From sequence record NC_054917.1: a DNA stretch of 64,000 bases; one strand, given 5' to 3'. Under the pieces are notes generated by a model. The model worked only from the letters and a program-made list of their open reading frames with translations, made no database searches and was not told the origin of the DNA. Source of the DNA: Escherichia phage vB_EcoM_G50. Made by a program: the position numbers and the translations under genes. Every line of letters begins with the position of its first letter. The first letter of the stretch is position 1. Of the stretch, positions 2,393 through 52,650 are shown piece after piece.

Positions 2393-2417
2393 TTCAATAT
2401 CCTCATTTGCCCAATTA

Positions 2418-2447
2418 ATTATACCACATCCTTGTGGTAAAGTAAAC
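2418..2447 (-). promoter_or_regulatory. T4-type early promoter (GTTTAC -35, TATAAT -10)
   Basis: Minus strand reads GTTTAC-TTTACCACAAGGATGTGG-TATAAT; -35 overlaps the gene 60 stop codon. Confidence 0.6.
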
Positions 2448-6835: not shown

Positions 6836-7007
6836 TACAATTTCCTCATTAATTAAACATTGGAGCGATGCGTTTCAGAAGAGTATCAGCACCTTTGGCG
6901 AATTTTCCATTTTATTCTCCAAGTTGTTTTCTGTATCAGTAGTTGATATTGATATAGTACCATAATCAACTACTGATGTATATAGTTTTATGAAAAAAAT
7001 TTAAACT

Positions 7008-7496: not shown

Positions 7497-7572
7497 AGTT
7501 ATCTCTCACTTGTTAAAAAGATTTTATACTCCACAGGACCATTATACTCTGGTCCCAAGAGTTTGTAAACTA

Positions 7573-8117: not shown

Positions 8118-8660
8118 TTATCTCATTTCAATAAAATCTACGAGTTCAGCATGCGATTTGCGGAACATTACTTGGTGCCCACCAATGATAACTTCATCTT
8201 CAGGAACTTCGTATACAGCGAGATAAAATCCTTTAGAAGATAATTCTTCCCGCTCTTCTCGTGTGAACCATCTCATCATATCATATTCGCTAGCGAAAGC
8301 AAAATGATAAAGAGCTATAAACCATCCAGGAATATAATGATCTACGCCTACATATTCTTCTTTCTCAAAGTTAGTATTAATTGCTATATTAGCATTTTTA
8401 ACTAATAATTTGTCTTCGCGCGGAAGAGGAATTCTTTTGTTATCATTACTATGATGCATAAAATTAGGTCTGTCATAACCTACGTGTAATAACCACTCTT
8501 CGCTCCATGAATCTATTATACTCCTGTACGGCGTTATTTGAACACAAAGATTTCGACGTATTGTTATAGCATCTTCATTATTAAGAATACTAAACGATGA
8601 TTCAACACGATAAATTTTCATTTTATTATCCTCAGTAGCTATGGTGTTATAATACCACAA
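8118..8660 (-). CDS. hypothetical protein (motB.2 position)
   Basis: 180-aa ORF. Confidence 0.45.
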   Translation of the reverse strand: MWYYNTIATEDNKMKIYRVESSFSILNNEDAITIRRNLCVQITPYRSIIDSWSEEWLLHVGYDRPNFMHHSNDNKRIPLPREDKLLVKNANIAINTNFEKEEYVGVDHYIPGWFIALYHFAFASEYDMMRWFTREEREELSSKGFYLAVYEVPEDEVIIGGHQVMFRKSHAELVDFIEMR

Positions 8661-8678
8661 CTAACCGAGGAAGTAAAC
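8649..8678 (-). promoter_or_regulatory. T4-type early promoter
   Basis: Minus strand GTTTAC-18 nt-TATTAT upstream of motB.2. Confidence 0.5.
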
Positions 8679-12971: not shown

Positions 12972-13591
12972 TCAACTACCTCAATATCATAAACTTTAAA
13001 TGTTCCAAATGAATCGTGTAATTTTTCTTTTGAAATAGAAGTTATTCTATACTTTCCAATTGGAATCATCCATTCTTGTTCATGTACAATCATCATTAAG
13101 TTATCAGTACGCTCTGAATCTAATCCATCAGTGTCTTCATACGTGTACTTAAACTCAGTATTAGGAGAAGAAAGTATAATATCGCTGATATGGTCAGAGT
13201 AATTAAAAGCTTTATCAGTTTTTAAGCGAAGTATTATTTTAGTAAAATATTCAGCATAAGAAAAAGAACATGCTGTGAGTAAACTAGTAGTAAATGAATC
13301 TACCCTGTTCGTTGAAAACACTTCTCCAACTTGTAAATCTTTAATAAGTTCTTCTGTTGATTTTGATATACCACGATATAACTGATAAGGCGATTTAGTT
13401 AAATGCTTTTTAATGATTTTATTCAACTGCTGATGAAGAGCTTCATTCTTTTTAGCTTCCATACATTGCCAAAGAACAGACTGCTCAAAGTCAGTAAATT
13501 TTTCACAGACCTTTTTATACATATCATATTGAAAATCAACGCTTTCAGCTTTTATAGATAACTGTTCAACATCTGCAAGATTAATAATCAT
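12968..13591 (-). CDS. modB: ADP-ribosyltransferase ModB
   Basis: 207 aa; ATGA overlap with modA. Confidence 0.75.
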   Translation of the reverse strand: MIINLADVEQLSIKAESVDFQYDMYKKVCEKFTDFEQSVLWQCMEAKKNEALHQQLNKIIKKHLTKSPYQLYRGISKSTEELIKDLQVGEVFSTNRVDSFTTSLLTACSFSYAEYFTKIILRLKTDKAFNYSDHISDIILSSPNTEFKYTYEDTDGLDSERTDNLMMIVHEQEWMIPIGKYRITSISKEKLHDSFGTFKVYDIEVVE

Positions 13592-13617
13592 GATAGCCTC
13601 CGTATACTTCAGAAGCT

Positions 13618-13647
13618 ATCATATCATCGTTAGAAAGAAAAGTAAAC
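13618..13647 (-). promoter_or_regulatory. T4-type early promoter upstream of modB
   Basis: Minus strand GTTTAC-18-TATGAT. Confidence 0.5.
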
Positions 13648-14677: not shown

Positions 14678-15149
14678 TTGTTTTACCTAAAACAATAGTA
14701 GGAGCATCGTCAAATTCATGAATTTTTAGCAATTTTGGATTTAAATTATTCCATAAAGAGGTAATAAAATATGATAGCGCACTTTCGTCCGTAATTATAA
14801 ATTTATTTCCCTTATCAATTTTCCAGTCATATATTGAATCATATGAATAGAAGGATAACGGTTTATTATTATAGTATGCTTCAGCAACATCAATATAGTT
14901 AGATTTAGTAAATGCTTGAATTGCCATAAATGGAGAATTTTGTACAGTTTCAATAATTCCGATCTTTTTAAGTTTTATTTCAACATCTTCTGGAACTGGC
15001 ATTGAAATAAAATCTTCTACTAGATACATGTCATTGTCATATCTTTTATCAATCATTACTGCTACTGTAATTGGAACATCCTTGACAAACGTCATACTAA
15101 TACTATTGATAGACATTTCAAACAAAATCGCTTCCATAATTTTCCTCAA
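14652..15149 (-). CDS. hypothetical protein
   Basis: 165-aa ORF. Confidence 0.45.
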
Positions 15150-15487
15150 TCACAAGATGTAGATGAACAACTAGAATCACAAGAACTTCCACATGAATCG
15201 CCCGTCCATACATGAACAGGAACATTTGTATCATATGAATCAGAACTAGACTGTGTTTTCTGTGCATTAGATGATGTAGTAGGTGTTGACCAGCGCCAAG
15301 GATTTTTATAATATTCTTGGGCTTCTTCATAAGTCATAGTAACTGCTTCTACTGTTCCATCTCCCATATAAACATACTCAACTACAGTTAAAGGAAGGTA
15401 GTCATTTGAAATAGGAACTACACCTTCTCCGGGAGTTGTAGAGAAAAAATCTGTAAAGAAACTTTTAAACCAATTAAAGATAAACAT
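15146..15487 (-). CDS. hypothetical protein with Cys/Ser-rich C-terminal tail
   Basis: 113 aa ending ...[17 protein letters not shown]. Confidence 0.45.
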
Positions 15488-15693
15488 TACAAAAAGCCTC
15501 TCTTGAATTCGACTTGCTTTTCGCCATAATCATATCGAATTTCTGCATTAAATTCGACAGAACCATCTGCGTACATCATAAATGAATGAACAACAACTTC
15601 TGTAGACCATGGTTGCAGTTCATATTTCTTCATTACATGCCGTGAAATGATAATATCTAAATCTTCATTTGGTTTAATCCAACGATTTAACAT
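15487..15693 (-). CDS. hypothetical small protein
   Basis: 68-aa ORF. Confidence 0.4.
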   Translation of the reverse strand: MLNRWIKPNEDLDIIISRHVMKKYELQPWSTEVVVHSFMMYADGSVEFNAEIRYDYGEKQVEFKRGFL

Positions 15694-15720
15694 AGTGCTC
15701 TCCTCTATAAGATAATTCTA

Positions 15721-15750
15721 TTATACCATACTCATTTTGGAAAGTAAACC
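15721..15750 (-). promoter_or_regulatory. T4-type early promoter
   Basis: Minus strand GTTTAC-18-TATAAT. Confidence 0.55.
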
Positions 15751-15760
15751 GTTTAAATGA

Positions 15761-15784
15761 AAAAAGGACTCCCGAAGGAGTCCT
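15761..15784 (-). terminator. rho-independent terminator after soc
   Basis: GGACUCC-UUCG-GGAGUCC hairpin followed by U6 on the minus-strand transcript. Confidence 0.65.
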
Positions 15785-15789
15785 TGAAT

Positions 15790-16035
15790 TTATTCACCAG
15801 TTACTTTCCACAAATCTTCATTTGCAGCAATCCATTCAGTACGTTGATTTTCTTCATATACTGTAGAATATGCTGCTTTTTCTGAAGGGAATGTCTGGTA
15901 ATGAGCGCCAGAAATTTTGTGAACGTCAGAATAAAGAGGGAAAGCTACAGAAATTTCCTTTCCTTCAATTTTCTTATTTCCATCTAATTTCTGCTCAAAT
16001 GTTTTAATATTAACATAACCGCGAGTACTAGCCAT
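15790..16035 (-). CDS. soc: small outer capsid protein Soc
   Basis: MASTRGYVNIKTFEQKLDG...; matches T4 Soc. Confidence 0.9.
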   Translation of the reverse strand: MASTRGYVNIKTFEQKLDGNKKIEGKEISVAFPLYSDVHKISGAHYQTFPSEKAAYSTVYEENQRTEWIAANEDLWKVTGE

Positions 16036-16065
16036 GTAATTCTCCTTTTATTTAAATTACATGAC

Positions 16066-16073
16066 TATTTATA
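16066..16073 (-). promoter_or_regulatory. T4 late promoter TATAAATA upstream of soc
   Basis: Exact TATAAATA on minus strand, followed by AAGGAG Shine-Dalgarno. Confidence 0.6.
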
Positions 16074-16117
16074 ATAAATTCTCACATCTTTTAAGTCATC
16101 GTTTAATAAACGAACTA

Positions 16118-16636
16118 TTAATAACCTCGATCTTGACGCGCGAAATTTTCAGCATTTTTCAGGTAATACAGTTTAAAGATTTCTTCAGCAGTAAGACCAA
16201 GACCTTGGAACATATTCAGAACGAAATGGAGAATATCAATCATTTCAAATTTAATTTCCAACTGGTCTTGCGGAGACAAATCAGTAATCAGAGTTTCACG
16301 ACGTTCACCATGCTGCGACTTCCAAGGTTTCCATACAGCAGATGCATCTTTTTCACCATTACTCATACCACCGAGAGAAGTCAGAAGTTCACGGAATTCA
16401 TCGTCAATATAATCTTTCTGATTACGCAACCAATCAACAACTTCACCGGCAGTAGCCAAGTCATCAGGATGACGATTATATTCAGGTTTATCTTTAGCTA
16501 AACGAATCTGCAGAGATTTCTGCATGTCAAGCATAACCTGCAGCGGGTCTTTTTCATCACCGAGAATATCCCAATATTCATTTTGAGCTTTATCAGCGCC
16601 TTCGATCAGTTGACTACATTCGTTGAAATGTGGCAT
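16118..16636 (-). CDS. 56: dCTP pyrophosphatase gp56
   Basis: 172-aa ORF matching T4 gp56 as recalled. Confidence 0.88.
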   Translation of the reverse strand: MPHFNECSQLIEGADKAQNEYWDILGDEKDPLQVMLDMQKSLQIRLAKDKPEYNRHPDDLATAGEVVDWLRNQKDYIDDEFRELLTSLGGMSNGEKDASAVWKPWKSQHGERRETLITDLSPQDQLEIKFEMIDILHFVLNMFQGLGLTAEEIFKLYYLKNAENFARQDRGY

Positions 16637-16637
16637 G

Positions 16638-17288
16638 TTATTTTTCCTTTCTTATGAAGTTTTCTATCATATGTCTATAGCAGATATTAGGATAACCTGC
16701 CTTGACAGCTATTTTATTAAATTTTGTGCGCTTAGGTCTATTATTATAAACCCATAATTCATAAAGCGCATCATAACTATTCCATATTTCTCCTCGCCTA
16801 GGATTTGGTAAACCATATCGAGGCGAATTTTTACCGCTAAATCTTCCTTTTCGGGCTTTACTCATATTAGCCTTGGCTTCATCGGATATAATTTTACCTT
16901 TATGAGCTAGACGCATTTTGGCTTTAGTTTCTTCTGGAGTCTTTTTACCTTTAATCCATGACGGCTTGCCATATCTAGGATTATTTTCACCCGAGAAAAG
17001 AACAGAGTTTTGGATTTTAAGGGTTTCTATTAATCTACTTGTTAATTTAACACCTTTATTATATCGCATTAAATTTACAGCATAATGCAATCCTCTCACA
17101 TCTGGATATATTTTAGTTAATAATCTATGAGCTATAAAATGCTCACGCGCAGTTAACTCAACAAGATTGTTTTTGCCATCTGCTCCTCCCATACATCTAG
17201 GAATTATATGATGGCGTTCTTTATATCCGCCAAGATGCCGGCATTTAGCTTTTGTAATTAAAGCCGAGTAAATTTTTTGGTAATTCAC
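16638..17288 (-). mobile_element. HNH homing endonuclease (Mob family), 216 aa
   Basis: HNH motif ERHHIIPRCMGG...NLV...REHFIAH; repeated G.N.PRYG motifs; GTG start; N-terminus paralogous to mobA-like ORF at 2960-3778. Confidence 0.8.
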
Positions 17289-17321
17289 ATATATCCTTTC
17301 AATTCATGGGTTAGTAGATTA

Positions 17322-17346
17322 ATTATACAATAAATATATAAAGCAA
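17322..17346 (-). promoter_or_regulatory. MotA-box middle promoter upstream of the HNH gene
   Basis: Minus strand TTGCTTTA then 11 nt then TATAAT. Confidence 0.45.
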
Positions 17347-17358
17347 TAAGGAGGACAT

Positions 17359-17559
17359 ATGGTACAAAAATTAATGGCACTTGTTAATGCCATAAAAGGT
17401 AATAAAAAACGTATAGCTTTTACTATTTCTGCTATGGTAGGAATTTTACTCTGGAACTTTATTCTATCACCTGTTGCAATTGCGCATGGTATTAATATTC
17501 CAGTAGTTACTCTTGATACATTTGTAGATTTAGCATTTGCTTTAGTTGGGTTGATTTAA
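17359..17559 (+). CDS. small membrane protein, 66 aa, two predicted TM helices
   Basis: Only plus-strand ORF with a strong SD (TAAGGAGG, 4 nt before ATG); hydrophobic segments; convergent with gene 61, stop codons overlap. Confidence 0.5.
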   Translation: MVQKLMALVNAIKGNKKRIAFTISAMVGILLWNFILSPVAIAHGINIPVVTLDTFVDLAFALVGLI

Positions 17560-18584
17560 ATCTTAGCATATTTAGATAGCCGCATTTTAGCCATCAACCC
17601 CTGGGCAATATTATTTTTCATATATTCCATAATTTGTTCAGGGGTTGCACCTTCCTTTCTAATCATATCATTGACATCTTTTGATTTCCAGGGAGATTTA
17701 TCCCAAAACATAACCCTTTCTCCTGCATCAACTAATTTAGTCATTCGCTTAATAGTGTCAGGATGACGAGGTTCATTATCTAAAACCCACACACGTCTAT
17801 CTTTAAATGGAACAACTTCTAGGTCTAATTGACCACCCGTAATAGCTATACCATTTTCAATAAAAAGTGAATCTATAGGTCCTTCTAGAACATATACATC
17901 ACCATCTTTAACTCGTTCTACTCCATAGATTTTTGTTGCCTCAGGATAAGCTTTGATGGTGATATATTTTTGGGGAGCATCTTTCTTTAATGCACGTCCT
18001 TGAAAAGACTCAGCTTTTCCATTAGCATTATAAATTGGAATAACAAGACGAGGCTCAGAAATTTCCTTTTTGTATGTTCCCGGTGCTATGCTATTAACTA
18101 ATTTAGGCCATTCGGTTGTAAACCAAAGATATTTCCATTTATCCTTTGGAATACAACGAGCTTTTACATATTTTATAATTGGATGGTCTTCCGCCAGTTT
18201 ATCTAATCTAACACATGACGGAAGAGATTTAATTATTTTCTTCTCAGGTTGCTTAGGAAGTTCTTTAGGTTTTTCTACTGGACGACTTTTACCTTTTTCT
18301 TTTCTTATTTCAAAGATATACTCACGATATAAATCGGGTTCAAACTCCTTTAAATATATTCCGATTGGTGCATGATAGTTACAGTTATAACAATGAATAT
18401 TTCCTTCATTATTATCACCATAATACCATCCACGAGCTTTATTCTGGTCGGTTTTTGAATCTCCACAAACAGGACATCTAAACCGCAATTTAAAAGTTGA
18501 ACTATTATTTACTTGTGTGAATTTAGGTAAATGAGCTAATGCACGATACGCAAACTCATTATCAATCCAAGGTATTGATGACAT
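17556..18584 (-). CDS. 61: DNA primase gp61
   Basis: 342 aa; zinc ribbon CPVCGD...CYNCNYH; matches T4 gp61. Confidence 0.9.
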   Translation of the reverse strand: MSSIPWIDNEFAYRALAHLPKFTQVNNSSTFKLRFRCPVCGDSKTDQNKARGWYYGDNNEGNIHCYNCNYHAPIGIYLKEFEPDLYREYIFEIRKEKGKSRPVEKPKELPKQPEKKIIKSLPSCVRLDKLAEDHPIIKYVKARCIPKDKWKYLWFTTEWPKLVNSIAPGTYKKEISEPRLVIPIYNANGKAESFQGRALKKDAPQKYITIKAYPEATKIYGVERVKDGDVYVLEGPIDSLFIENGIAITGGQLDLEVVPFKDRRVWVLDNEPRHPDTIKRMTKLVDAGERVMFWDKSPWKSKDVNDMIRKEGATPEQIMEYMKNNIAQGLMAKMRLSKYAKI

Positions 18585-18586
18585 TT

Positions 18587-18751
18587 TTACTCTTCTTTTT
18601 CTTTAGATTCCTCTTTTTTCTTTTTAGGAATCTGTTCAGGACCTTTATTTACTACAGCGCCTGATGTTGTTCCAGTAGAGATATTTTCAGGATTACCACC
18701 TGAATCTCCAGCGACCATATCTTCTTTGATAAATTCTTTATATGTTTTCAT
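18587..18751 (-). CDS. small protein with capsid-targeting-like N-terminus (61.1 position)
   Basis: Hand-translated 54 aa MKTYKEFIKEDMVAGDSGG...; SD AGAGG upstream. Confidence 0.45.
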   Translation of the reverse strand: MKTYKEFIKEDMVAGDSGGNPENISTGTTSGAVVNKGPEQIPKKKKEESKEKEE

Positions 18752-18752
18752 A

Positions 18753-19379
18753 TTAACCTCTATTCATAAAAGAATTAAAAATTTGGTCATCAATAGAAAC
18801 ATTTACTTTAGACTGTTTTTCGGATGGTAATTCATATCCACATATTACAATTTTGTGATCAATATCAAAATACACAGAAGCAATATGATTAATGCTGTTT
18901 TCAGTAAAGTCTAAATCAACATCAATATCTTTTTGACCAAAGCCCAAAGGATAAATAATGCGAGTAATTCGATTATCTTTAACAAAGATTCCACCGACAT
19001 ACTCTGTACTGCGTTTAAAGTCTACACGCCGACGAAATGAAAAATATTCAGGCTCTTTATGAGCTCGGCTCATAGGGCACAACGAATAACTAGAATAAGA
19101 GATGTCAAATCCTACGCCTTCAATATGAACTAAATTGTCATGATTAAACCAATTATAATCATATGCCAAGTCCATTAGATTGTCATATGTGAAAGGCACC
19201 GGATTAACATCATTGGTCACAAGCATATAATTAGCAACTGCTATAATTTCATTATTTTTAACGAATACAAACCGTGATTGGTGCGAATGGCCTGGACCTG
19301 CGTTTTCACGATTAATGATATAACACTGGGCACCTTTATATTTGTACGTGTCTTTACACTTGTGCATTTGATAAAGCAT
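18753..19379 (-). CDS. hypothetical protein (61.2 position)
   Basis: 208-aa ORF. Confidence 0.5.
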   Translation of the reverse strand: MLYQMHKCKDTYKYKGAQCYIINRENAGPGHSHQSRFVFVKNNEIIAVANYMLVTNDVNPVPFTYDNLMDLAYDYNWFNHDNLVHIEGVGFDISYSSYSLCPMSRAHKEPEYFSFRRRVDFKRSTEYVGGIFVKDNRITRIIYPLGFGQKDIDVDLDFTENSINHIASVYFDIDHKIVICGYELPSEKQSKVNVSIDDQIFNSFMNRG

Positions 19380-19672
19380 TATTCACCTACCACTTCAGCG
19401 ATGATATTTTTATTATTAAAGTTTTTATCGCAATACAGAACATAATTATACTGCATTACACCACCAGACTTAAGCTGTTTTTGCACTTCAGCTTTCATTT
19501 CAGGACGATCGCGCTCAACGATATTCATAATATCTGCTTCAATTTGGGTTTCAACTTCAGTCTGATCAGCAGTCATAGACCATTCGCACAAATCTTTATC
19601 ATAACCTGCCATAGCAGGCTGAGCAGCACAAGAAGCTAAAGCAAAAATTGTAGCAAAGATAAATTTTTTCAT
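19379..19672 (-). CDS. sp: Spackle periplasmic protein
   Basis: 97 aa with signal peptide; size and position match T4 sp. Confidence 0.75.
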   Translation of the reverse strand: MKKFIFATIFALASCAAQPAMAGYDKDLCEWSMTADQTEVETQIEADIMNIVERDRPEMKAEVQKQLKSGGVMQYNYVLYCDKNFNNKNIIAEVVGE

Positions 19673-19700
19673 GATAATCTCCTCAGTAGTTTATGTTTAT

Positions 19701-19730
19701 ATAGTATCTCAATTTCCAACAAAAGTAAAC
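19701..19730 (-). promoter_or_regulatory. T4-type early promoter
   Basis: Minus strand GTTTAC-18-TACTAT. Confidence 0.5.
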
Positions 19731-19732
19731 AG

Positions 19733-19990
19733 CTATTTTAAAACTTTTGCATAATCACATGTTACAAACTGTTTCTCTAGCTTGACGATTTTACGAAAGT
19801 ATCTTTTGCATTGGCGAATCTGCCGCTTCGTAGGGCGAACAGCAAACTTAATAAATTCCACTCGACCAAATGGAGGGCTTTCTTCTGCTGGAATATCTAA
19901 CACCAATTCCCACGTATCTGCAATAAGTGCTTTGAATTGCGTATTTTTCCTGACGTTATACGGAGTAGGTTTAAATAAAACAATATGCAT
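19733..19990 (-). CDS. basic small protein (61.4 position)
   Basis: ORF from internal ATG just after dmd stop; Lys/Arg-rich. Confidence 0.45.
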   Translation of the reverse strand: MHIVLFKPTPYNVRKNTQFKALIADTWELVLDIPAEESPPFGRVEFIKFAVRPTKRQIRQCKRYFRKIVKLEKQFVTCDYAKVLK

Positions 19991-19991
19991 A

Positions 19992-20174
19992 TTATCCTCG
20001 GCAATCCACTTCACATACTTTCTTGTCATCAACGAAAGCTTTAACTAATGCTTTATTAACTTCAGCATACTGAGTAGTAGCCCATTGAACGTCATCTTTC
20101 ATCATTGTGGTTTCTTTAGTAAACATGCTTTCATTCTTAAACCACCCCATAAAAACTACCTTTACCAATTCCAT
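19992..20174 (-). CDS. dmd: Dmd (antitoxin against host RnlA/LsoA), 60 aa
   Basis: 60-aa ORF immediately downstream of gene 41, as in T4. Confidence 0.7.
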   Translation of the reverse strand: MELVKVVFMGWFKNESMFTKETTMMKDDVQWATTQYAEVNKALVKAFVDDKKVCEVDCRG

Positions 20175-20203
20175 AACAATCTCCTCATTTAACCAACAAG
20201 ACT

Positions 20204-20233
20204 ACTATACCATAGTCTTGTCAGCTTGTAAAC
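20204..20233 (-). promoter_or_regulatory. early promoter with -10 inside a perfect 8-bp inverted repeat
   Basis: GTTTAC-18-TATAGT; CAAGACTA-8 nt-TAGTCTTG spans the -10. Confidence 0.5.
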
Positions 20234-21660
20234 TAAAATTTTAATTCATTTGCCAAAGCATCTAACTGAGCTCGAGCTGATTCGTTTCTTTGATAGCGAT
20301 TCTGTTCAGCCTGAATCTGTTGTGAACCTGCTACTTCACTCACTTCAGTTGGAGTAGAATCTTGTTCAATTTCTACCCATTTCTGATTTCCTTTTTGAAC
20401 ACCCATCAAAAACTTATTCCATTTATTCTTATCACCATATCGTGATTTGATTTGCTTAATGAGTTGTTGTTCAGCAGCTGCTAACTCCTCGGTTTCAATG
20501 ACCGCAAGCATAAAATCAGCTGTCGCTGGAAGACCAGCAGATTCTGCGATATCACTCATGTTAACATCGGAAGAGTCCCAAGCTTGTTTACCAACCTGTG
20601 CTGCAGTCCAAAGAACAGTTTCGGTTTCAACAGCCAGAGCACGCAATTCCTCTGCAATAGCTTTAACAGTTGTGTAACTATTTTCTGAATAAACTCTGAT
20701 GCGGCAAGATTTACAAATACCTAGATAGTCGACAATAATGATTGTTGGAACAAAATTCTTCTTGAGCTTCAATTCATTCAAGAGAGACCTGAATGTGTTA
20801 GCGTCTGCTCCACCAGTAGGATACTGTTTAACGATTAAACGACCAAGGGTAGATTTCTCACGCCATTTTTCCATTTTTCCTTTATATTCAGCGTAAGAAA
20901 TATGCCCATCATCAATGTCATCAAGAGAAACATCAAGCATGTTAGCGTCAATACGCTTAGCACAGACTTCTTCTGCCATTTCCATGGAAATGTAAAGAAC
21001 ATTATGTCCGAGCTGCAAATAATCTGCTGCCAATGAACACAATCCTAATGACTTACCAACGTTAACGCCAGCCATTAAAACGTTCAGTGTTCCAGTCTCA
21101 GCTCCGCCTTTAGTAATTTTGTTCAGAATTCTGAGTTTAAATGGAACCTTACGAGCTTTATTCATATAAGATAGCCAACGTGCTTCGTAGTCATCCATCC
21201 AATCATGACCAACGTAGCTATCAAATGAAATTGATAATGCTTGACGCATGATGTCAGGAATAGCACCTACATCTGGCATTTTCTTATTTCGTTTTTCCGG
21301 AGGAAGCTCAGCATTAGTTTGAATTTCGATTATTTTAGACGTAGCATTAAACATCGCCCTTTGCTGAACATATTTTTCTGTTTCTTTTACTAACCAGCTG
21401 TGGTCTTCCGGAGAATCAGCCAGTTTTGAAATAAGTGTTTTTACACCAGAATATTCTGTTTCAGTAAATGAACTATTTTCTAATGCAACATTTAACGCAT
21501 TAATAGATGGAACGCTATGATACTCATTGACATGAGATTTAATTAATTTGAATGTATTTTTAGCTGGACCACTTTCAAAATATTCTGAATCCATATATGG
21601 CCAAACTTTTGAAAAATAAGCTTGATCAAATATGAGATGAGAAAGAATAATTTCTACCAC
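20233..21660 (-). CDS. 41: replicative DNA helicase gp41 (DnaB-like)
   Basis: 475 aa, Walker A GVNVGKS; matches T4 gp41. Confidence 0.92.
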   Translation of the reverse strand: MVEIILSHLIFDQAYFSKVWPYMDSEYFESGPAKNTFKLIKSHVNEYHSVPSINALNVALENSSFTETEYSGVKTLISKLADSPEDHSWLVKETEKYVQQRAMFNATSKIIEIQTNAELPPEKRNKKMPDVGAIPDIMRQALSISFDSYVGHDWMDDYEARWLSYMNKARKVPFKLRILNKITKGGAETGTLNVLMAGVNVGKSLGLCSLAADYLQLGHNVLYISMEMAEEVCAKRIDANMLDVSLDDIDDGHISYAEYKGKMEKWREKSTLGRLIVKQYPTGGADANTFRSLLNELKLKKNFVPTIIIVDYLGICKSCRIRVYSENSYTTVKAIAEELRALAVETETVLWTAAQVGKQAWDSSDVNMSDIAESAGLPATADFMLAVIETEELAAAEQQLIKQIKSRYGDKNKWNKFLMGVQKGNQKWVEIEQDSTPTEVSEVAGSQQIQAEQNRYQRNESARAQLDALANELKF

Positions 21661-21669
21661 ACTTACTCC

Positions 21670-22014
21670 TTAAAAGAATTTAAATTTTTTCTTTGACCTT
21701 TTATTAAATGCATCTTGTAGTTGCATTGTAATACATTTTTCTACATGAGGAGCTAACTCAGCTTTTCTTTCTTGGTCAAGAACAGCAAAGTCCATTACAA
21801 CCTTTCCATCAACCCAATCTAATTTTGTCACATACACAATGTGTGTAGAACCATCTTCTAGTTTAATGACAATCTCCTGGATAACATTTTCCATGGCAGA
21901 TTTAATTATCTTAAGAGATTCATTAAAAAGACGTTCTTTTCTTTCTTCTTCCCCCTCCGAAGAGGGGGATTCGTCGATAATTTCTAGATCTAAGTCTAAA
22001 TCATCTTTATTCAT
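21670..22014 (-). CDS. 40: gp40-like head assembly protein
   Basis: Position between uvsX and 41; start taken as ATG just after uvsX stop. Confidence 0.5.
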   Translation of the reverse strand: MNKDDLDLDLEIIDESPSSEGEEERKERLFNESLKIIKSAMENVIQEIVIKLEDGSTHIVYVTKLDWVDGKVVMDFAVLDQERKAELAPHVEKCITMQLQDAFNKRSKKKFKFF

Positions 22015-23188
22015 TAAATTCTTCCATATCACTTAACTGCTCGAGGTCAGTTTCTAAATCAGCAGCTGATTTACTTTTACTTTCTGGAGATTTAAATTTT
22101 TCAACCTTTGAGTTAATCAATTCATCAACTTCAGCTTCAACAATTTCATTACTATCAATAGCACCTAACTGATAAGCACGTTTAATAGCATCTCGGAATG
22201 GTTGATGCTTAAATAAAGGACCCCAGAATGTAGTGCAGTTGGTATCTTTTGCACGCCAAGATTTTTCTTCGCGAATCATCTCGCCGGTTTCTTCGTCAAG
22301 AAATTCACGAGCATACCAGCCATTTTTAGGTTTTACCACGAATCCTAATTCTAGAGCCATATCTAACAATCCAGAATAAGGATCGATACCACCGTCAAAT
22401 TTAACATCAATAAAGAATTTACTTTTTTCTTTAACGGTACGAGATTTTTCTACATTTAGAACAAATTGATACCCCTGAAGATCAGAACCATCTTTAATCT
22501 GACGCTTACCGATAATGAATACAGTATCAGCCGAATACATTACGCCTGTACCACCTGTCATCACGGTTTTACTAAACATTTCAATTGTTTCAATTGTATG
22601 GTTAACCGCAACACATGGAATATTTTTAATGCTAAAGTAAGGAGTAACAATACGGAATAATGACTTCAGTGATTTAGCACGAGTCATATCTGCCACAGAT
22701 TTTTCATTCAAGGCATCTTCCGTTTCTTTCTTAGAAGCCATATTACCGATTGAGTCGATGAATACAATAACCTTTTCACCACGCTCAATAGCTTCAAGCT
22801 GGTTCACCATATCAATTTTCAGTTGTTCAACTGACTGAATCGGCGTATGAATTACTCGTTCCGGGTCAACTCCCATGGATCGCAAATAAGCTGGAGTAAT
22901 ACCAAATTCGCTATCATAGAATAGACAAACCGCGTCAGGATATTTGTTCAAATACGCCGCAACCATAGTCAAAGACATATTTGATTTAAAGTGTTTAGAA
23001 GGCCCTGCGAAAATAGTTAAACCAGACTGCATACCACCATCAATCGCACCAGAAATAGCAATATTAAGCATTGGAATTTTTGTACGAATTACATCCTTTT
23101 CATTAAAGAATTTAGATGTAGTCAGTTCAGCAGTCATTTTAGAAGTGGAAGCTTTAATCAAACGGGATTTTAAATCTGCAATAGACAT
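22007..23188 (-). CDS. uvsX: UvsX recombinase (RecA-like)
   Basis: 393 aa; C-terminal half identical to T4 UvsX as recalled, N-terminal half slightly diverged. Confidence 0.92.
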   Translation of the reverse strand: MSIADLKSRLIKASTSKMTAELTTSKFFNEKDVIRTKIPMLNIAISGAIDGGMQSGLTIFAGPSKHFKSNMSLTMVAAYLNKYPDAVCLFYDSEFGITPAYLRSMGVDPERVIHTPIQSVEQLKIDMVNQLEAIERGEKVIVFIDSIGNMASKKETEDALNEKSVADMTRAKSLKSLFRIVTPYFSIKNIPCVAVNHTIETIEMFSKTVMTGGTGVMYSADTVFIIGKRQIKDGSDLQGYQFVLNVEKSRTVKEKSKFFIDVKFDGGIDPYSGLLDMALELGFVVKPKNGWYAREFLDEETGEMIREEKSWRAKDTNCTTFWGPLFKHQPFRDAIKRAYQLGAIDSNEIVEAEVDELINSKVEKFKSPESKSKSAADLETDLEQLSDMEEFNE

Positions 23189-23265
23189 TCATTTTTTCCA
23201 TAGGCATCATTATATTTTCCTCACTGGTTAAAGATAGAGTAATTATAACACAATAAATTTAGGCA

Positions 23266-24114
23266 TTAATCAACTGCTATTGGATGAATAGCATTAAACT
23301 TATGAAATGCTTCTGATTTTTCTTTACGAGAAACACACATGCGAAGAACCTTTAATGGCTCGTCTTCTTCACCCAACGATTTTCGTTTTTCAATATTAGA
23401 AGTTTTCCAACGAGCTTGCTCTGGAAACTCTCTATTGATTTGCTCAAGCGCTCTATTATGTTTAGAATTACTACGAATTGAACTGCACCCGCCGGGAGCG
23501 TGTGATTTTCCAGATACAACTAGATATTTGAACAAGGCCAAATGCGGATAACCTTGATTAATTAAATTGAGAAATGCATACATATCTTCACATAAATCAA
23601 TTTTTCCATACCCAATTTGTTCTGTCGTAAGTTTTCCGAGGTCATACCATGTATTCGTGAATCCATATGAGTTTTCACGATAATTACCCCAAGATGAAGT
23701 AATTTTAAAAATTGGTAGACGAGCATGACCGTGATAATACCCGCAATCCATAGCATCCTCAACGTATTGAATTAATTCATAGAACTGTTCACGAGTTAAT
23801 TGATTAATTTTATCTACGCGCCGTTTATCGTCTCTCTTTCGTATTGAACTCATACGAATAGTAGTATCATCATCAATCATCCAGATTCGTTGACCTGCAT
23901 ACATATCAGTAATTGCTTTACGAGTACCGGCAATTCCATTAACATCATCAGGAATAGTTACAATTTTAGCTCTAGACCCATAAGCATCATAATAAGCTTT
24001 TTCTTCGTGTTCACGCACTACAATATGTGGTTCATAATCAGTCGGAAACATATCAAGGGCAGAAACTGCCCCTACGCGTTGATAGCTTGGAATTACGAAT
24101 TGAATCATTTCCAC
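23266..24114 (-). CDS. GT-A-fold glycosyltransferase, candidate DNA hmC-glucose modifying enzyme
   Basis: 282 aa with DXD-type motif (WMIDDDTT); sits between uvsX and gene 42, where T4 carries beta-gt. Confidence 0.55.
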   Translation of the reverse strand: MEMIQFVIPSYQRVGAVSALDMFPTDYEPHIVVREHEEKAYYDAYGSRAKIVTIPDDVNGIAGTRKAITDMYAGQRIWMIDDDTTIRMSSIRKRDDKRRVDKINQLTREQFYELIQYVEDAMDCGYYHGHARLPIFKITSSWGNYRENSYGFTNTWYDLGKLTTEQIGYGKIDLCEDMYAFLNLINQGYPHLALFKYLVVSGKSHAPGGCSSIRSNSKHNRALEQINREFPEQARWKTSNIEKRKSLGEEDEPLKVLRMCVSRKEKSEAFHKFNAIHPIAVD

Positions 24115-24845
24115 TCACCGTTATAATCTTTTTTCACAATATGAGTTTCGCCAGTATTCCACCAATGATCAACCAAGTAAAAATGACGAGAATATACATG
24201 AAGACTTCCAACATTCCATATAATAGAACCTGCTTTATACTGACGAGTTGAATCGCCTGCATTCAAATCAGATACTAATTTATCTAATACGTATTTTTGC
24301 CATGCATAATCATTACGGAATCCGAAGACCACGTCATTTGAGCGCATGCTTACTACTGCATTGACTTTCTTATCACGAATCAGGTACTGTACTGTATTCG
24401 TACACATGAAATCTGACATACCATCTTTATTGTAGTCAAATTGCATGGATGGACGAGTATAAATCATGATACCACGTCGAGAATCAGGATTTTGACCAAG
24501 TTCAGCTAAACACATATCATACTGAGCATAGTTATCTTCTGACCAGATAGCCCAACCATAATTCGAGTTAATTTCGCCTTTAGAAGATGCTACCTGCTGC
24601 CAAATCTTCGGTGTTTCACCTGGAATATCTTTAACGAACAAGCTCTTAGATTTATACCATTCAAGTTCACGCTGAATGTATTCATCATTAAGAGCGCCAA
24701 AAATAAACGGTTCATCTGCTACAAATGATGCGCCAATAATTTCAATAGTTTTAACGCCAGTTTTATCAACTACGAAATCTTTTTCCTTTAATGCAAGCCC
24801 CAAATGAAGACGGATTTCTTCAACTGTCATAAAGTCACTAATCAT
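24105..24845 (-). CDS. 42: dCMP hydroxymethylase gp42
   Basis: 246 aa, thymidylate-synthase-like fold; matches T4 gp42. Confidence 0.9.
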   Translation of the reverse strand: MISDFMTVEEIRLHLGLALKEKDFVVDKTGVKTIEIIGASFVADEPFIFGALNDEYIQRELEWYKSKSLFVKDIPGETPKIWQQVASSKGEINSNYGWAIWSEDNYAQYDMCLAELGQNPDSRRGIMIYTRPSMQFDYNKDGMSDFMCTNTVQYLIRDKKVNAVVSMRSNDVVFGFRNDYAWQKYVLDKLVSDLNAGDSTRQYKAGSIIWNVGSLHVYSRHFYLVDHWWNTGETHIVKKDYNGEWK

Positions 24846-24998
24846 TTAAACCTCAATTGATACATTCATATTTAATTTGTAACAGTAATAAACTCCAACC
24901 TAAAATAATAGTTGGAATCATAAGAGGAACCGTTACACTATAGTATATACTTATTATAACCATCAAGATTAAAAGCAACACTGCTATAATTTTGCTTT

Positions 24999-25250
24999 TC
25001 ATTCCTTCTCTCTGATGATAATTACCTGATTTGGCTGCGCAGACTTTTTAGTTTCACCTACAATTGACCAAATAAATGTAATAAACCAACCAATAATTGA
25101 CCAGTTAAACAGTAAAGATGTGAAAAAGATTCCTACTGTCGATTTTGACCCACGCATCAAGGCGATGAACCACGGAAGCATGTATATAATAATAGCCAAC
25201 ACGCCTGAAACTAAAACCATAAAAATTGAACCTGCTACTAAAGTTTCCAT
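24999..25250 (-). CDS. imm: Imm superinfection immunity membrane protein
   Basis: 83 aa, two hydrophobic segments; size and position match T4 imm. Confidence 0.7.
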   Translation of the reverse strand: METLVAGSIFMVLVSGVLAIIIYMLPWFIALMRGSKSTVGIFFTSLLFNWSIIGWFITFIWSIVGETKKSAQPNQVIIIREKE

Positions 25251-25257
25251 GTTTTCC

Positions 25258-25638
25258 TCACTTAGTCAAATTTTTTACGCATGAATTATAAGAATTTACT
25301 ACATACTCCATCGGAGCATTTTTACCGGTACGCCATTGGTAATTATTAGCCCAATTTGCCCAAAGTTCTGCACAGTAATTTTCAATTTTTTCTTCGCGTG
25401 TAATTACATCCGAATTACGATATGCTTGAGCAGATTCATCTGGACGAATAGCTTCGTCAAAATTCGCCTGCATTTGTTCTACTGTCTCTTTTGGAGCTTC
25501 TTTATAACACTTGACATTAGGATTATAAAACTTGCTTGAACAGTTTACAATTTTTCCTACATCAGACTGATTTACTACCGGTCCTTGAGCTACACAACCA
25601 GTAAGACCTAATGCAATAACCAAAATAGCGATTTTCAT
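25258..25638 (-). CDS. lipoprotein (imm.1 position)
   Basis: Start at ATG with GGAG SD; lipobox MKIAILVIALGLTGC. Confidence 0.5.
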   Translation of the reverse strand: MKIAILVIALGLTGCVAQGPVVNQSDVGKIVNCSSKFYNPNVKCYKEAPKETVEQMQANFDEAIRPDESAQAYRNSDVITREEKIENYCAELWANWANNYQWRTGKNAPMEYVVNSYNSCVKNLTK

Positions 25639-25672
25639 TTCATTCTCCAAATCTGTATTGGTTGATAGTTGT

Positions 25673-25702
25673 ATAGTACCACAGAGGAACAGTCTTGTAA
25701 AC
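25673..25702 (-). promoter_or_regulatory. T4-type early promoter (repeat copy A)
   Basis: GTTTAC-18-TACTAT; about 41 nt nearly identical to 50859-50899. Confidence 0.55.
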
Positions 25703-25784
25703 CGTTTTGTGAAAAATTTTTAATGAATTCAAAGGACCCAGAATCATCTATTTTTCCTAAGTATAGATTTATATTACTTGTATG

Positions 25785-25806
25785 AAAAAGGGACCCGGAG
25801 GTCCCT
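25785..25806 (-). terminator. rho-independent terminator after gene 43
   Basis: GGGACC-UCCG-GGUCCC hairpin plus U5. Confidence 0.6.
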
Positions 25807-25818
25807 AGATTTATTCTA

Positions 25819-28515
25819 TCAGCCAAACAGGAAGTCTAACGAAGCTTTTTCCTCATAGTCCATACCTGCCGATTCACACATACCCGCAAGCGGTTTAACA
25901 AACGATTTTTGGAACAAAGTTGAGTAGTCAATCCAAGACAGTACGTCAGAACGAATTTCTTTTGGAAGTTCTGTACCCGACGGCCAAGCAATGCATTTGT
26001 CACCAAATGGATTTCCTTCACGTAATGGAAGAACCATTACTTTATTTCCATCCAAAATTGGAGCTACACCTAAACCGCTAACAGCTCGACGATAAGTTAG
26101 CACACCACGAATATGGAACGGACATTTAAATCCTGGCCAACCTTTATCATCATATTTCGCTATATCGTTCGCAGTTTTTACTTCAGCAATAACTTTATAG
26201 TCAAGTTGACGATATTCTTTCTCGAAGTTCTTGTAATATTCTTGGACAGACTCTTCGCCTTCTTGAAGAATACGACGAATACTTTCTTCGAGAGCTTCTT
26301 GGACCGCTTTAGGCGTTGAACTCTGCTGAGTTTCCATACCCATGATTTTTAGATGCGGTTCAGCAAATCGCTTATCTTCCATATCATAAACGTTCAGAGC
26401 ATAACGCTTTTTCGCTTTCCAAAATCCACCAACGCCCTTTGAACCAAGCGGAGGACAAGAAATAGCTTCACGATCCATATGCATCAGATGCTCGCGGTTA
26501 TTCATATAATCACATAACTCACGATATGCAACATCAATCATAGGTTCCATCTTTTTCTTACCAAACTGATTCATGAATTCAACTAAATCATTTTGTTCTT
26601 TAAAGCGGTCAAGACCTACTTTTTCAATAACTTTATCTACACAGACATATACCGAATCAGTATCACCTGCTGCGATGAAATCTTCACCATCAGTTCCACA
26701 TACTTTATTCAGATATTCATTAATTTTACGAGCAATCCACTGAATACCAACTTGACCAAAAATTGTGATAGCAGTAGCATTTCGCAAATCATAATAGCGG
26801 AAATGAATGTTACCAAGAGCACCATAAAGACTGTTAATAAGAATTTTACGGTTCAGCTGATTTGTGTTAGCAAGTGTAGCTGCTTTTTCACATTCTTCGA
26901 TCAGACTATTAAGAACAGATTCGGTGTAATTTGATAGTTCATTTAAGAAATCATCACTGAACTTAACATATCGTTCAACTTCCGGTTTAGTTGAACAAGA
27001 CCCTGCGCCTTTCATAATAATCTTTTTAATAGCTTCGGCATTCATTTCTTCAGCGAACATTTTCTTTTTCCAATCTTTACGCTGGAAAAATACTTTAGCG
27101 ATTTCCTTTGGAATGATACCTTCTTGGTGCTTATCATACATCCATCCATTCGGAGAACAAGAATATTCATCACTTGGCTTAGGAGCTGTTCCTGCGATGT
27201 ATTCATGAATTGGATGAACTTTAAACTGCCCACGAATAGTCTCAGGACTAATGTTAACCTGACGAATAATGCTAGGATACAGAGACGTCAAGTCAAAACT
27301 CATAATGTATCGACGAGCAATCGGTTTAGGTTCAAACACAAATGCACCTGGAAAACTCTGTTTAACGTGCGAACCTTGTTGAGGAATAACCTTATGTTCA
27401 CCTTTCAGTGAGTTAAAAATAATAGCATCCCAAGTTTTAATAGGACTCATTACACCAGAAAAAGGCATTTTAGCGTAATAAGACATACTTAAAACTAGAT
27501 CGATAAACCCGCGAATTTTATCAATTGCTTGAACTGATTCTACGTCAATGATGTTATAACTAATGTATCGTTGATGATTAGTCTCACGAAGTTTATTAAT
27601 AGGACCATCGTACGGCAATTTACCTTTTTTGGTTTCGTGTTGAGCAACTGATTCCAAAGAGAACGATGGCAAATTAGTAAATGCGAATTTCTTGTACAAA
27701 TCTAAATAATCAAGAATAGATACGCCATCAATAGAATAAATTTCTTTGCTACCGTACATATTTTGAATTAGTTTAGATTTTACTCGACCGATTGGAGAGA
27801 AGCGTTTCATACTACGTTCACCGAGAACCATTTTAACGCGATTCATGATATACGGAACGTCAAATCCCTCAATATTCCAACCGGTAAAAATAGCAGGTCG
27901 TTTCTGTTCCCAGAGATTAATATATTCCATGAGCATATCACGCTCATTATCAAATGGCATATAAATTACTCGGTCAAGAATTTCTTGAGGAACTTCATCA
28001 CCACCTTCACAGTCAAGCTTAGCAGCTAACTTTGCATCCCATTTTGATACTGAACCGTACATTGAATTCAAAAGGTCGAAAACATAAAAACGATCGTCAA
28101 TTGAATCGTAATGAGTGATAGCATCAATTTCATATTCAGCTTTCATTGGGTCAGGAAATTTATCACCAGTAACCTCAATGTCACAGTTAGCTACACGAAC
28201 AAATTTTCGGTCATAAACAATTTCTGAACCGTATGTATCACTGATATAAGCGAGTTTAAAATCGTTCATACCGAGAGCTTCGAGACCGATGTCTTCCATT
28301 CGTTTCATCCAATCTCGAGCATCTTTCATTGATGGAAATTTTTGAGGAGCGCAGTTTTTACCATAGATGTCTTTGTACTTTGACTCTTCCTTACAATGCC
28401 TAAACATAGTTGGAAGATATTCTACTTCACGAGTACGTTCCTTTCCATTTTCATCAATATAACGTTCAACAATATTATTTCCGACTGTTTCAATAGAGAT
28501 ATAAAATTCTTTCAT
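25819..28515 (-). CDS. 43: DNA polymerase gp43 (family B)
   Basis: 898 aa with exonuclease and polymerase motifs; matches T4 gp43. Confidence 0.95.
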   Translation of the reverse strand: MKEFYISIETVGNNIVERYIDENGKERTREVEYLPTMFRHCKEESKYKDIYGKNCAPQKFPSMKDARDWMKRMEDIGLEALGMNDFKLAYISDTYGSEIVYDRKFVRVANCDIEVTGDKFPDPMKAEYEIDAITHYDSIDDRFYVFDLLNSMYGSVSKWDAKLAAKLDCEGGDEVPQEILDRVIYMPFDNERDMLMEYINLWEQKRPAIFTGWNIEGFDVPYIMNRVKMVLGERSMKRFSPIGRVKSKLIQNMYGSKEIYSIDGVSILDYLDLYKKFAFTNLPSFSLESVAQHETKKGKLPYDGPINKLRETNHQRYISYNIIDVESVQAIDKIRGFIDLVLSMSYYAKMPFSGVMSPIKTWDAIIFNSLKGEHKVIPQQGSHVKQSFPGAFVFEPKPIARRYIMSFDLTSLYPSIIRQVNISPETIRGQFKVHPIHEYIAGTAPKPSDEYSCSPNGWMYDKHQEGIIPKEIAKVFFQRKDWKKKMFAEEMNAEAIKKIIMKGAGSCSTKPEVERYVKFSDDFLNELSNYTESVLNSLIEECEKAATLANTNQLNRKILINSLYGALGNIHFRYYDLRNATAITIFGQVGIQWIARKINEYLNKVCGTDGEDFIAAGDTDSVYVCVDKVIEKVGLDRFKEQNDLVEFMNQFGKKKMEPMIDVAYRELCDYMNNREHLMHMDREAISCPPLGSKGVGGFWKAKKRYALNVYDMEDKRFAEPHLKIMGMETQQSSTPKAVQEALEESIRRILQEGEESVQEYYKNFEKEYRQLDYKVIAEVKTANDIAKYDDKGWPGFKCPFHIRGVLTYRRAVSGLGVAPILDGNKVMVLPLREGNPFGDKCIAWPSGTELPKEIRSDVLSWIDYSTLFQKSFVKPLAGMCESAGMDYEEKASLDFLFG

Positions 28516-30737: not shown

Positions 30738-30770
30738 AATTTCCTCATTCAAGTTTTAGTGTAAATTATA

Positions 30771-30786
30771 AAGGGCCGAAGCCCTC
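30771..30786 (-). terminator. C(UUCG)G hairpin between genes 45 and 44
   Basis: AGGGC-UUCG-GCCCU. Confidence 0.45.
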
Positions 30787-30788
30787 TA

Positions 30789-31475
30789 TTAAAAATCATG
30801 GGTAGAATCAGCTTCAAGAGCTACTACATAATTCGCATGTTCACCTTCAAATTTAGCAGCGCCTTGTTTACCTTTTGCCCAAAGCAGAAGTTTATAATTT
30901 CCTGGTTGCATTTTCATATTTGCCATATTGATAATGAAATTAAATGTGTTTTCACCATCATAATCACCAAGAGTCAAAGAATATTTAACACGAGTCAAAG
31001 CAGAATCTTCTACTTTATTAAAACCGTTAATTACGATTTTACCTTCTTTTACTGTGATAGCAATTGTATCAATCTGCAGACCGCGAGATACACGCAACAG
31101 CTGTTGAAGGTCTTCAGCTTTAATTTCGGTAACAACAGATGCTACCGGGAATGGAATTGGTTTATTAGGAGCAACTACTGTACTCGGATCGGCTGCTGGC
31201 CAAAAAATTGTTGAACGGGCATCAGCAATTTTAATATTTCCATCTTCTGACTGGGAAATTTCTGCATCATCATTAACTAGAGACAGAATACCGAGAAAAC
31301 CGTTCAAATCGTAAATTGCTACATCAAAATCAATAGTGTCAGAAATATTTGCTTCCGCGTAAGTTGTACCATTAACTGCGCGAGTCATAATAAATTGACC
31401 GGATTTAAGCATAATACCTGAGTTAATAGTAGCGAAATTTTTAAGCAGAGCAGTAGTATCTTTAGACAGTTTCAT
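30789..31475 (-). CDS. 45: sliding clamp gp45
   Basis: 228 aa; matches T4 gp45. Confidence 0.9.
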   Translation of the reverse strand: MKLSKDTTALLKNFATINSGIMLKSGQFIMTRAVNGTTYAEANISDTIDFDVAIYDLNGFLGILSLVNDDAEISQSEDGNIKIADARSTIFWPAADPSTVVAPNKPIPFPVASVVTEIKAEDLQQLLRVSRGLQIDTIAITVKEGKIVINGFNKVEDSALTRVKYSLTLGDYDGENTFNFIINMANMKMQPGNYKLLLWAKGKQGAAKFEGEHANYVVALEADSTHDF

Positions 31476-35319: not shown

Positions 35320-35480
35320 ATATCAAGAACCGTCATTGAAATGCAAAATAAAATTATTGAAATAAATCCATCTGGAGTGCTAAAGAACCCAATCCAACAT
35401 GCTCTAGTGAATAGATAAAATGCAAGAAAAAGTATCACATATCCAAGAAATATCATTATATCAAACTCCGTATAAAGCTA

Positions 35481-35496
35481 AAGGGCCGAAGCCCTT
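35481..35496 (-). terminator. C(UUCG)G hairpin after alpha-gt
   Basis: AGGGC-UUCG-GCCCU adjacent to stop codon. Confidence 0.5.
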
Positions 35497-36748: not shown

Positions 36749-36770
36749 ATAGGAGCCGAAGCTCCTATCC
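36749..36770 (-). other. GGA-UAG stop fused to an 8-bp C(UUCG)G hairpin (gene-60-like take-off motif)
   Basis: Minus strand GGA UAG GAGC UUCG GCUCCUAU at the end of the 57-aa ORF. Confidence 0.5.
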
Positions 36771-47870: not shown

Positions 47871-47898
47871 ATTAATCTCCTCAGTAGAAAGTAAGAAC

Positions 47899-52648: not shown

Positions 52649-52650
52649 TA

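Follow-up and report, generated by a model that had tools for sequence, protein, structure and literature searches.

The closest described counterparts of the hairpins reported here are the PeSLs, composite elements in which an early promoter is fused to a stem-loop. In the passages drawn on here, Arbiol et al. 2010 (PMC2839356) distinguish five positions of the stem-loop, including an overlap with the -10 element, show terminator activity for one RB49/phi1 stem-loop and describe the T-even elements as AT-rich, located on T4 early promoters and without polyG/polyC stems. Comeau et al. 2014 (PMC4122927), again in the passages cited here, extend the PeSLs to the PST/T4 pair and quote TTTACW-N17-TAYWAT as the PST/T4 early consensus. 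A second related system consists of inhibitory hairpins that sequester the SD; a T4 review (PMC3014915) describes them for genes e, soc, 49 and I-TevI alone, all with late promoters, and states that RegB is blocked by secondary structure at its GGAG motif. RegB cuts efficiently at a GGAG motif of motB mRNA (PMC1702504). Exploring 64,000 nucleotides of Escherichia phage vB_EcoM_G50 (NC_054917.1; hereafter the window), we found that the hairpins bracketing its early promoters belong to a known kind, the PeSL cassettes, and at four promoters also to the gene-e type in which the promoter lies in a hairpin. The initial annotation of this DNA had missed that the composite element is already known as PeSL and that three of its sites (2, 3 and 4) are paralogous.

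The window is Tequatrovirus DNA with ~96-98% identity to T4 and carries its early genes on the minus strand. The 3-kb piece around the focal repeat is 97.5-98.2% identical to T4 and close relatives, and a 301-nt piece is 100% identical to Escherichia phage vB_EcoM_11B_SA_NWU; the genes in this part of the window are without exception on the minus strand. Alignment to T4 yields 20 blocks with several indels, reaching from T4 position 12 to ~67,000; the window is without the nrdD intron and its I-TevII (42479-42482), and its segA/beta-glucosyltransferase and segF/56/dam segments differ from those of T4 (23176-24123 and 16073-17348, respectively). Early promoters here read gTTTACa-N17-TGGTAtAgT, and the form found at the hairpin sites, TTTAC(A/T)-N17-(TGG)TAnnnT, agrees at every one of them with the sigma-70-type PST/T4 consensus. 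The T4 RefSeq record holds no promoter annotation and the literature yielded no usable T4 transcript-end maps. We worked with two lists, 29 promoter-like sites found by an algorithm (site 1 added by hand) and 20 curated early promoters, and took transcription to start ~7 nt past the -10, as predicted from sigma-70 geometry. Rfam covariance models gave 0 matches to the whole window at the gathering threshold.

The focal repeat (20197-20220; site 2) lies in the 58 nt that separate the stop codon of the helicase gene, gene 41, from the start codon of dmd, and reads tagTTTACAagctgacaagactaTGGTATAGTagtcttgttggttaaatGAGGAGattgttATG on the minus strand. Its loop falls inside the extended -10 of the dmd promoter, whose predicted start is at ~20197, and the stem has G·U here where T4 has G-C. 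Inverted repeats with arms of 8-10 bp had been claimed around the -10 of at least five early promoters. All five are present, with coordinates right to within 1-2 nt; their stems are usually longer than claimed, reaching 13 bp at site 1 and 11 bp at site 3, and the arms quoted for site 5 make 10 bp including one G·U. The figure of five stands as a minimum and is an undercount, for outlier complementarity between spacer and leader was found at 8 of the 20 curated early promoters, namely the five listed sites and those of motB.2, motB and nrdC.8. The promoter of modB is a ninth, related case in which the -10 itself forms the start of the 5' arm, and the other 12 curated promoters have no such hairpin. 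Predicted folding energies of the eight hairpins range from -16 to -23 kcal/mol, with z scores of -3.7 to -6.7, and all hairpin promoters are intergenic, with a stop codon before them and an SD and start codon after them (Table 1). Downstream of the site 1 promoter come a strong SD, GGAGAATAAAATG, the same as that of nrdC.10, and an 11-codon ORF ahead of cef (6875-6920, minus strand), which may encode a leader peptide or be a mini-ORF that escaped annotation.

Table 1. Hairpins around early promoters of the window, and the promoter and ribosome-binding elements of dmd (dG in kcal/mol).
Feature	Positions	Strand	Pairing and stability	-10 element and other particulars
Site 1 hairpin, motB/cef	6935-6977	-	13 perfect pairs plus inner 5-bp helix; dG -19.4, z -6.1	TACTAT (6954-6959) in loop; hairpin identical in T4
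motB promoter hairpin	7528-7562	-	7-bp helix around -10; dG -16.4, z -3.7	TATAAT (7541-7546), bracketed in the same register as at site 2
motB.2 upstream hairpin	8629-8671	-	17 pairs; dG -22.9, z -6.7	TATTAT (8649-8654), last five bases in loop, first base closing the stem; SD GAGG in 3' arm
modB upstream hairpin	13589-13623	-	14 bp	5' arm opens with -10 TATGAT; 3' arm is SD plus AUG
dmd SD and start codon	20172-20188	-		SD GAGGAG; 3-5 nt past the hairpin and unpaired with it
Site 2 hairpin, gene 41/dmd	20191-20226	-	14 pairs including 4 G·U (9 bp perfect at 20196-20221; 14 bp counting G·U at 20192-20225); dG -18.0, z -5.2	loop GGUAUA
dmd -10	20204-20209	-		TATAGT preceded by TGG (extended -10); loop plus first base of 3' arm
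dmd early promoter -35	20227-20232	-		TTTACA; abuts the gene 41 stop codon (20233-20235)
nrdC.8 upstream hairpin	50847-50887	-	13 pairs; dG -17.9, z -6.2	TACTAT (50870-50875) in loop; SD GGAGG in 3' arm
Site 3 hairpin, upstream of nrdC.10	52292-52321	-	12 pairs (11 bp perfect); dG -16.7, z -5.4	TATAGT (52302-52307); register as in site 2
Site 4 hairpin, upstream of mobD.2	55757-55805	-	15-bp core plus 4-bp outer helix; core 55761-55796 with 10 bp perfect, 14-15 bp with one G·U; dG -21.4, z -5.8	TATAGT (55774-55779); G·U where T4 has A-U
Site 5 hairpin, upstream of regB	60378-60436	-	~18-22 pairs (minimum-free-energy fold); dG -22.3	TATAAT (60406-60411) in loop; 5' arm is the spacer right after -35; 3' arm holds SD GAGGAG (60387-60390)

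The initial annotation had proposed that only read-through RNA folds these repeats, promoter-initiated RNA being without the 5' arm, and that they share the logic of the gene e leader hairpin. The first proposal agrees with the geometry of the spacer: with the 5' arm placed in the spacer or at the -10, the transcript from the predicted start would be without it and, at the compact sites, without most of the 3' arm too. For the second, we compared how much free energy it takes to open the stretch from SD to AUG in read-through RNA and in a transcript from the predicted start. The cost was higher in read-through RNA at regB (+9.3 kcal/mol), motB.2 (+8.4), nrdC.8 (+11.9) and modB (+11.1), whereas the difference was near zero at dmd (about 0.2; 2.4 vs 2.3 kcal/mol for opening its ribosome-binding site), site 1 (0.3) and site 3 (0.4), and was reversed at site 4 (-4.8 kcal/mol). 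Gene-e logic thus fits regB among the five sites originally listed, together with the unlisted motB.2, nrdC.8 and modB, and does not extend to dmd or to sites 1, 3 and 4.

The SD-masking design recurs in related phages with other sequences. At regB, a 5' arm right after the -35, a -10 in the loop and a GGAG in the 3' arm were found in clades whose RegB is 100%, 77% and 68% identical, with inner arms of CUUGACUG/CAGUUAAG, CUAGUUG/CAACUAG and UGUAAG/CUUACA, respectively. The motB.2 design is kept with different arms in the 70-77% clade, the SD-sequestering design of nrdC.8 with different arms in the 68-70% clade, and within-clade variants of both keep the pairing (G·U to A-U, G-C to G·U). Single-sequence folds are the better evidence here, as the MAFFT/RNAalifold alignment of regB leaders sets the T4 row one base off and so understates covariation. 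At motB, an outer 5-bp helix in read-through RNA joins the leader GGAG, just past the hairpin core, to ACUCU of the spacer. Judged by sequence context, the GGAG that RegB cuts in motB mRNA is probably this leader GGAG, and pairing with ACUCU would protect the leader GGAG in read-through RNA.

Together, these features lead us to consider it probable that the hairpins are RNA elements of composite promoter/stem-loop cassettes, of two classes, and not DNA operators. The arms would occupy the spacer (17 nt) and the stretch between -10 and SD, the sole free parts of a packed promoter, with the -10 left in the loop. A polymerase coming from the upstream gene would transcribe both arms and its read-through RNA would fold the hairpin, while the promoter's own RNA would start in or beyond the 3' arm and have none. 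In class B (regB, motB.2, nrdC.8 and modB) the SD lies in the 3' arm, and read-through RNA would be poorly translated and shielded from RegB at GGAG, the immediate-early RNA from the promoter itself being open; this would be the gene-e logic transferred from a late to an early promoter. In class A (dmd, nrdC.10, mobD.2, motB and site 1) the hairpin is compact and the SD free. Given that the SD is free and that no U-tract is present, no function follows from the anatomy of class A; most likely its hairpin marks where the upstream cistron ends, acting as an attenuator or a block to 3' exonucleases or else as a structural insulator; a block could matter most once RegB or RNase E has cut in the adjoining A-rich SD region. 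We prefer to read class A as a cistron-boundary RNA element. We infer the transcription starts, the occurrence of read-through and all functional consequences in this scheme. It is a more tentative suggestion that at the SD-sequestering early promoters the origin of an mRNA decides its fate, the promoter's own RNA being translatable and RegB-sensitive, and read-through RNA silent or translated by coupling only, and RegB-resistant.

The position of the -10 in the loop is related to packing. At 7 of the 8 hairpin promoters the -35 follows the upstream stop codon by 0-7 nt (25 nt at site 1), and the intergenic gaps are 57-63 nt long at six of them, 76 nt at motB and 97 nt at site 1. A gap this tight leaves unconstrained bases only in the spacer and in the segment from -10 to SD, and hence the -10 falls in the loop. 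In roomier promoters, where the -35 lies 38-117 nt from the stop codon, a separate terminator hairpin with a UUCG tetraloop and a U-run stands upstream of the -35, and three other promoters have a small hairpin inside the spacer. The UUCG terminators resemble the hairpins under study in being intergenic, on the same strand and often beside early promoters; they have a G/C-rich stem, a 4-nt loop, a U-run and a position upstream of the -35, all of which the hairpins under study are without.

UUCG hairpins (seen as 'cgaa' on the plus strand) were noted on the minus strand at 2823-2846, 15764-15785, 21950-21969, 35479-35498, 36749-36768 and 52630-52649. The first overlaps the translational bypass region of gene 60. 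U-runs follow those at 15764-15785 and 52630-52649, which lie just upstream of an early-promoter -35. The same layout of terminator then promoter is seen at a CUCC-loop hairpin (25789-25806) and at a UUCG hairpin near 56630. At 30745-30800 (minus strand), ahead of an ORF of 319 aa mapping to T4 gene 44, a promoter-like TTTAAT-N17-TATAAT holds an AGGGC-UUCG-GCCCU hairpin wholly inside its spacer. The early promoters at 47880-47925 and 2400-2445 (minus strand) have a spacer hairpin in common, CCACAaggaUGUGG; the TGG of the extended -10 comes from its 3' arm.

A rival account is the PeSL scheme as published, in which the stem-loop would be a terminator or attenuator, promoter plus stem-loop a linker for recombination, and the position of the -10 without translational meaning. 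In favor of this scheme, the cited passages of Arbiol et al. 2010 report both the -10 overlap and terminator activity, and those of Comeau et al. 2014 report PeSLs in PST/T4. In addition, sites 2, 3 and 4 are paralogous, and the place of site 3 coincides exactly with the boundary of an indel between the window and T4, whose junctions fall at the -35 and the SD. A 309-bp segment with a 66-aa ORF (52285-52593) is absent from T4; it is flanked by site 3 and by a second early promoter (-10 at 52576), which the segment itself carries. T4 homology breaks off at the -35 TTTACA and is picked up again at the SD GGAGAATAAAATG, and T4 has at this place a different promoter cassette with a 14-nt palindrome, CATAAAGCTTTATG, in its spacer. 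Site 3 is, however, the one clean indel case, and only 2 of 38 alignment breakpoints to T4 lie within 40 nt of a promoter, where ~1 is expected. A U-tract after the hairpin is absent at 8 of 8 sites, the tails being A-rich, and the stems are AU-rich, unlike the G/C-rich RB49 stem-loop for which the cited passages report the activity. In a consensus terminator scan of 15000-26000, a stretch that contains just the focal hairpin out of the eight, this hairpin was not called. A canonical intrinsic terminator, with G/C-rich stem and U-run, is therefore unlikely, and the terminator function of the RB49/phi1 element is not to be assumed for AU-rich stems without a U-tract. Recombination, moreover, would explain neither the sense-strand bias of G·U pairs described below nor the SD-sequestering arms that covary across clades. 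We regard the published scheme as an unlikely account of these hairpins.

It had been argued that the arms differ between sites, making a single shared repressor unlikely. The focal locus is too uniform among orthologues for an analysis of covariation: over the gene 41/dmd intergenic region the phages of the collection share at least 91% identity, beyond Tequatrovirus the gene 41 part alone aligns, and a Dmd search in viral contigs gave just 5 loci, near-identical. We therefore used paralogous and cross-genus cassettes gathered by promoter pattern. One cassette has paralogous copies at sites 2, 3 and 4, all with a common register in which, with TTTACA numbered 1-6, paired positions sum to 49 (i+j=49); the register is set by the promoter hexamers, not by structure. 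Viral contigs were scanned for TTTACA-N14-TGGTATAGT, a pattern blind to the arms. The scan gave 150 distinct sequences with a bimodal distribution, ~20 having at least 10 of 12 pairs in the i+j=49 register and the rest no more than 9 of 12, typically 3-7. All but one of the ~20 paired sequences precede an SD and start codon, and those checked lie on contigs of T4 size. A gap-free alignment of the paired set showed two-sided changes at 10 of 14 pairs (63 cells), a covariation matched by 0 of 500 shuffles. Sliding the register reduced pairing from 87% to 26-56%; as the aligned sequences were picked for pairing, the percentage paired is circular, and covariation and wobble bias alone count.

The wobble bias concerns the strand. 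Every one-sided change in the alignment produced a G·U pair on the transcribed-sense strand, and core pairs 11-17 had no unpaired cells. Folds of the full hairpins were more stable for the sense than for the antisense strand in 8 of 8 cases, and spacer/leader duplexes preferred the sense strand by a mean of -5.1 kcal/mol vs a compositional baseline of -1.2 +/- 2.5, the bias being partly compositional since 67% of chimeras (the spacer of one promoter joined to the leader of another) favor sense too. These results show the pairing to be under selection and favor an RNA, or at least sense-strand, structure, and the earlier view of the repeats as RNA-level elements, as well as that of arms that differ and yet stay complementary, is upheld.

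A further reading is a DNA-level element. It could be a cruciform or single-strand hairpin that eases or impedes melting at the -10, or an operator palindrome bound by a dimeric regulator, one candidate being the factor responsible for early-promoter shut-off. In its favor, the repeat has its centre on the -10 in the fixed i+j=49 register in several genera, and phage N4 provides a precedent for promoters in hairpin form. The 5' arm (~-16 to -28), however, is double-stranded in the sigma-70 open complex, and loops of 6-17 nt disfavor extrusion. How early promoters are shut off is unknown according to PMC2988021, but no more than 8 of the 20 early promoters have the repeat, its arms vary from site to site and covary with no shared half-site, and each sense G·U corresponds to an A·C mismatch in the complementary strand, so that neither the symmetry of a duplex nor a cruciform is preserved. 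Covariation and sense-only G·U thus favor an RNA hairpin in read-through transcripts over operator or cruciform; on these grounds the shared repressor/operator and the cruciform are rejected, and we consider any DNA-level role very improbable.

Among other Tevenvirinae, many early promoters have the leader ACTCCTACAC(C/A)AAC after TATAGT with a spacer that is not complementary (12 such leader-only loci were noted); its complement is present in about eight relatives. This leader may be kept for a reason of its own, or the loci may be recombinant 'half' cassettes. The lack of the hairpin at 12 of 20 promoters of the window, together with the many Tevenvirinae leaders without a complementary spacer, indicates that the element is dispensable.

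It had been suggested that the palindromes be counted against a shuffled control. Over the whole window we counted 51 perfect stems of 8 bp or more (loop 3-20) vs 27.6 +/- 5.2 expected, with 0 of 200 dinucleotide shuffles reaching 51; the repeats are thus commoner than chance, and tests of position agree. The decisive test of the excess is the position of stems around the -10. At least 9 Watson-Crick pairs bracket the -10 at 4 of the 29 promoter-like sites, where 0.14 are expected from the cross-promoter chimeras and ~0.08 from random genome positions; without the hand-added site 1 the count is 3 of 28 (estimated Poisson P ~5e-4). The duplex of a spacer with its own leader has a mean energy of -12.3 kcal/mol vs -7.9 for mismatched pairs, and 0 of 20000 permutations were as good. 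Dinucleotide shuffles, cross-promoter chimeras and permutation together lead us to reject chance palindromes. That the repeats have no function, being either chance products of AT-rich DNA, in which 27.6 such stems per window are after all expected, or the outcome of templated (quasi-palindrome) mutation or gene conversion among promoter copies, as the recent paralogy of some cassettes and the many related promoters without a 5' arm might suggest, is hardly credible against an excess at promoters of 30-fold or more, two-sided changes at 10 of 14 pairs, wobble on the sense strand only where templated correction would yield perfect Watson-Crick repeats, and an SD-masking design rebuilt with different sequences in three clades and for three genes.

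If the hairpins do function in the manner suggested above, the free nucleotides of a promoter label transcripts by their origin, confining RegB and other products to the first minutes of infection and shielding read-through messages from RegB. This could help to explain the abrupt stop of some early proteins and the RegB resistance of GGAG in read-through RNA of the middle period. The focal dmd site would be a conserved RNA hairpin at a cistron boundary, of smaller practical value, and the label 'terminator' given to PeSLs should not be assumed for T-even phages.

Two systems outside the T-even phages offer partial likenesses. REP-like intercistronic stabiliser hairpins of bacterial operons lie after a stop codon, are without a U-tract and may block 3'-5' exonucleases; the possible role of class A is likened to theirs by analogy, with no relationship in sequence. 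In phage N4, the virion RNA polymerase, a phage enzyme, recognises promoters that take the form of DNA hairpins, and like the present sites they are inverted repeats at phage early promoters; here, in contrast, the host sigma-70 holoenzyme reads a duplex and the G·U pairs point to RNA.

The likeness to PeSLs, as described in the cited passages, is much closer. In both, an early sigma-70-type promoter and a stem-loop share a short intergenic gap that leads directly into an SD and ORF, both are cassettes repeated within a genome, the -10 overlap is among the listed PeSL positions, and the positions of hairpins around promoters in the window match the PeSL position subclasses. They differ in that the RB49/phi1 stem-loop tested there is G/C-rich, whereas the stems here are AU-rich and have no U-tract. 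The legend of the PST figure places PeSL stem-loops 'just upstream' of the promoter, which suits the UUCG hairpins of the window better than the stems that bracket the -10. SD masking and the strand bias of G·U, both described here, are not discussed in the cited passages of the PeSL papers.

The hairpins of genes e, soc, 49 and I-TevI resemble those of regB, motB.2, nrdC.8 and modB in having the promoter inside or just after the 5' arm, and in both groups the promoter's own transcript is translatable and longer transcripts mask the SD or AUG, as predicted for the sites here. Gene e-type hairpins hold the SD or AUG in the helix; dmd and sites 1, 3 and 4 differ in having the SD outside. The promoter of the gene e type is the late TATAAATA, whereas all those here are early sigma-70 promoters, and with an early instead of a late internal promoter the timing would be inverted, expression being predicted to be confined to the immediate-early burst. 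The newest element is the conserved early-promoter form of SD masking at regB, motB.2 and nrdC.8.
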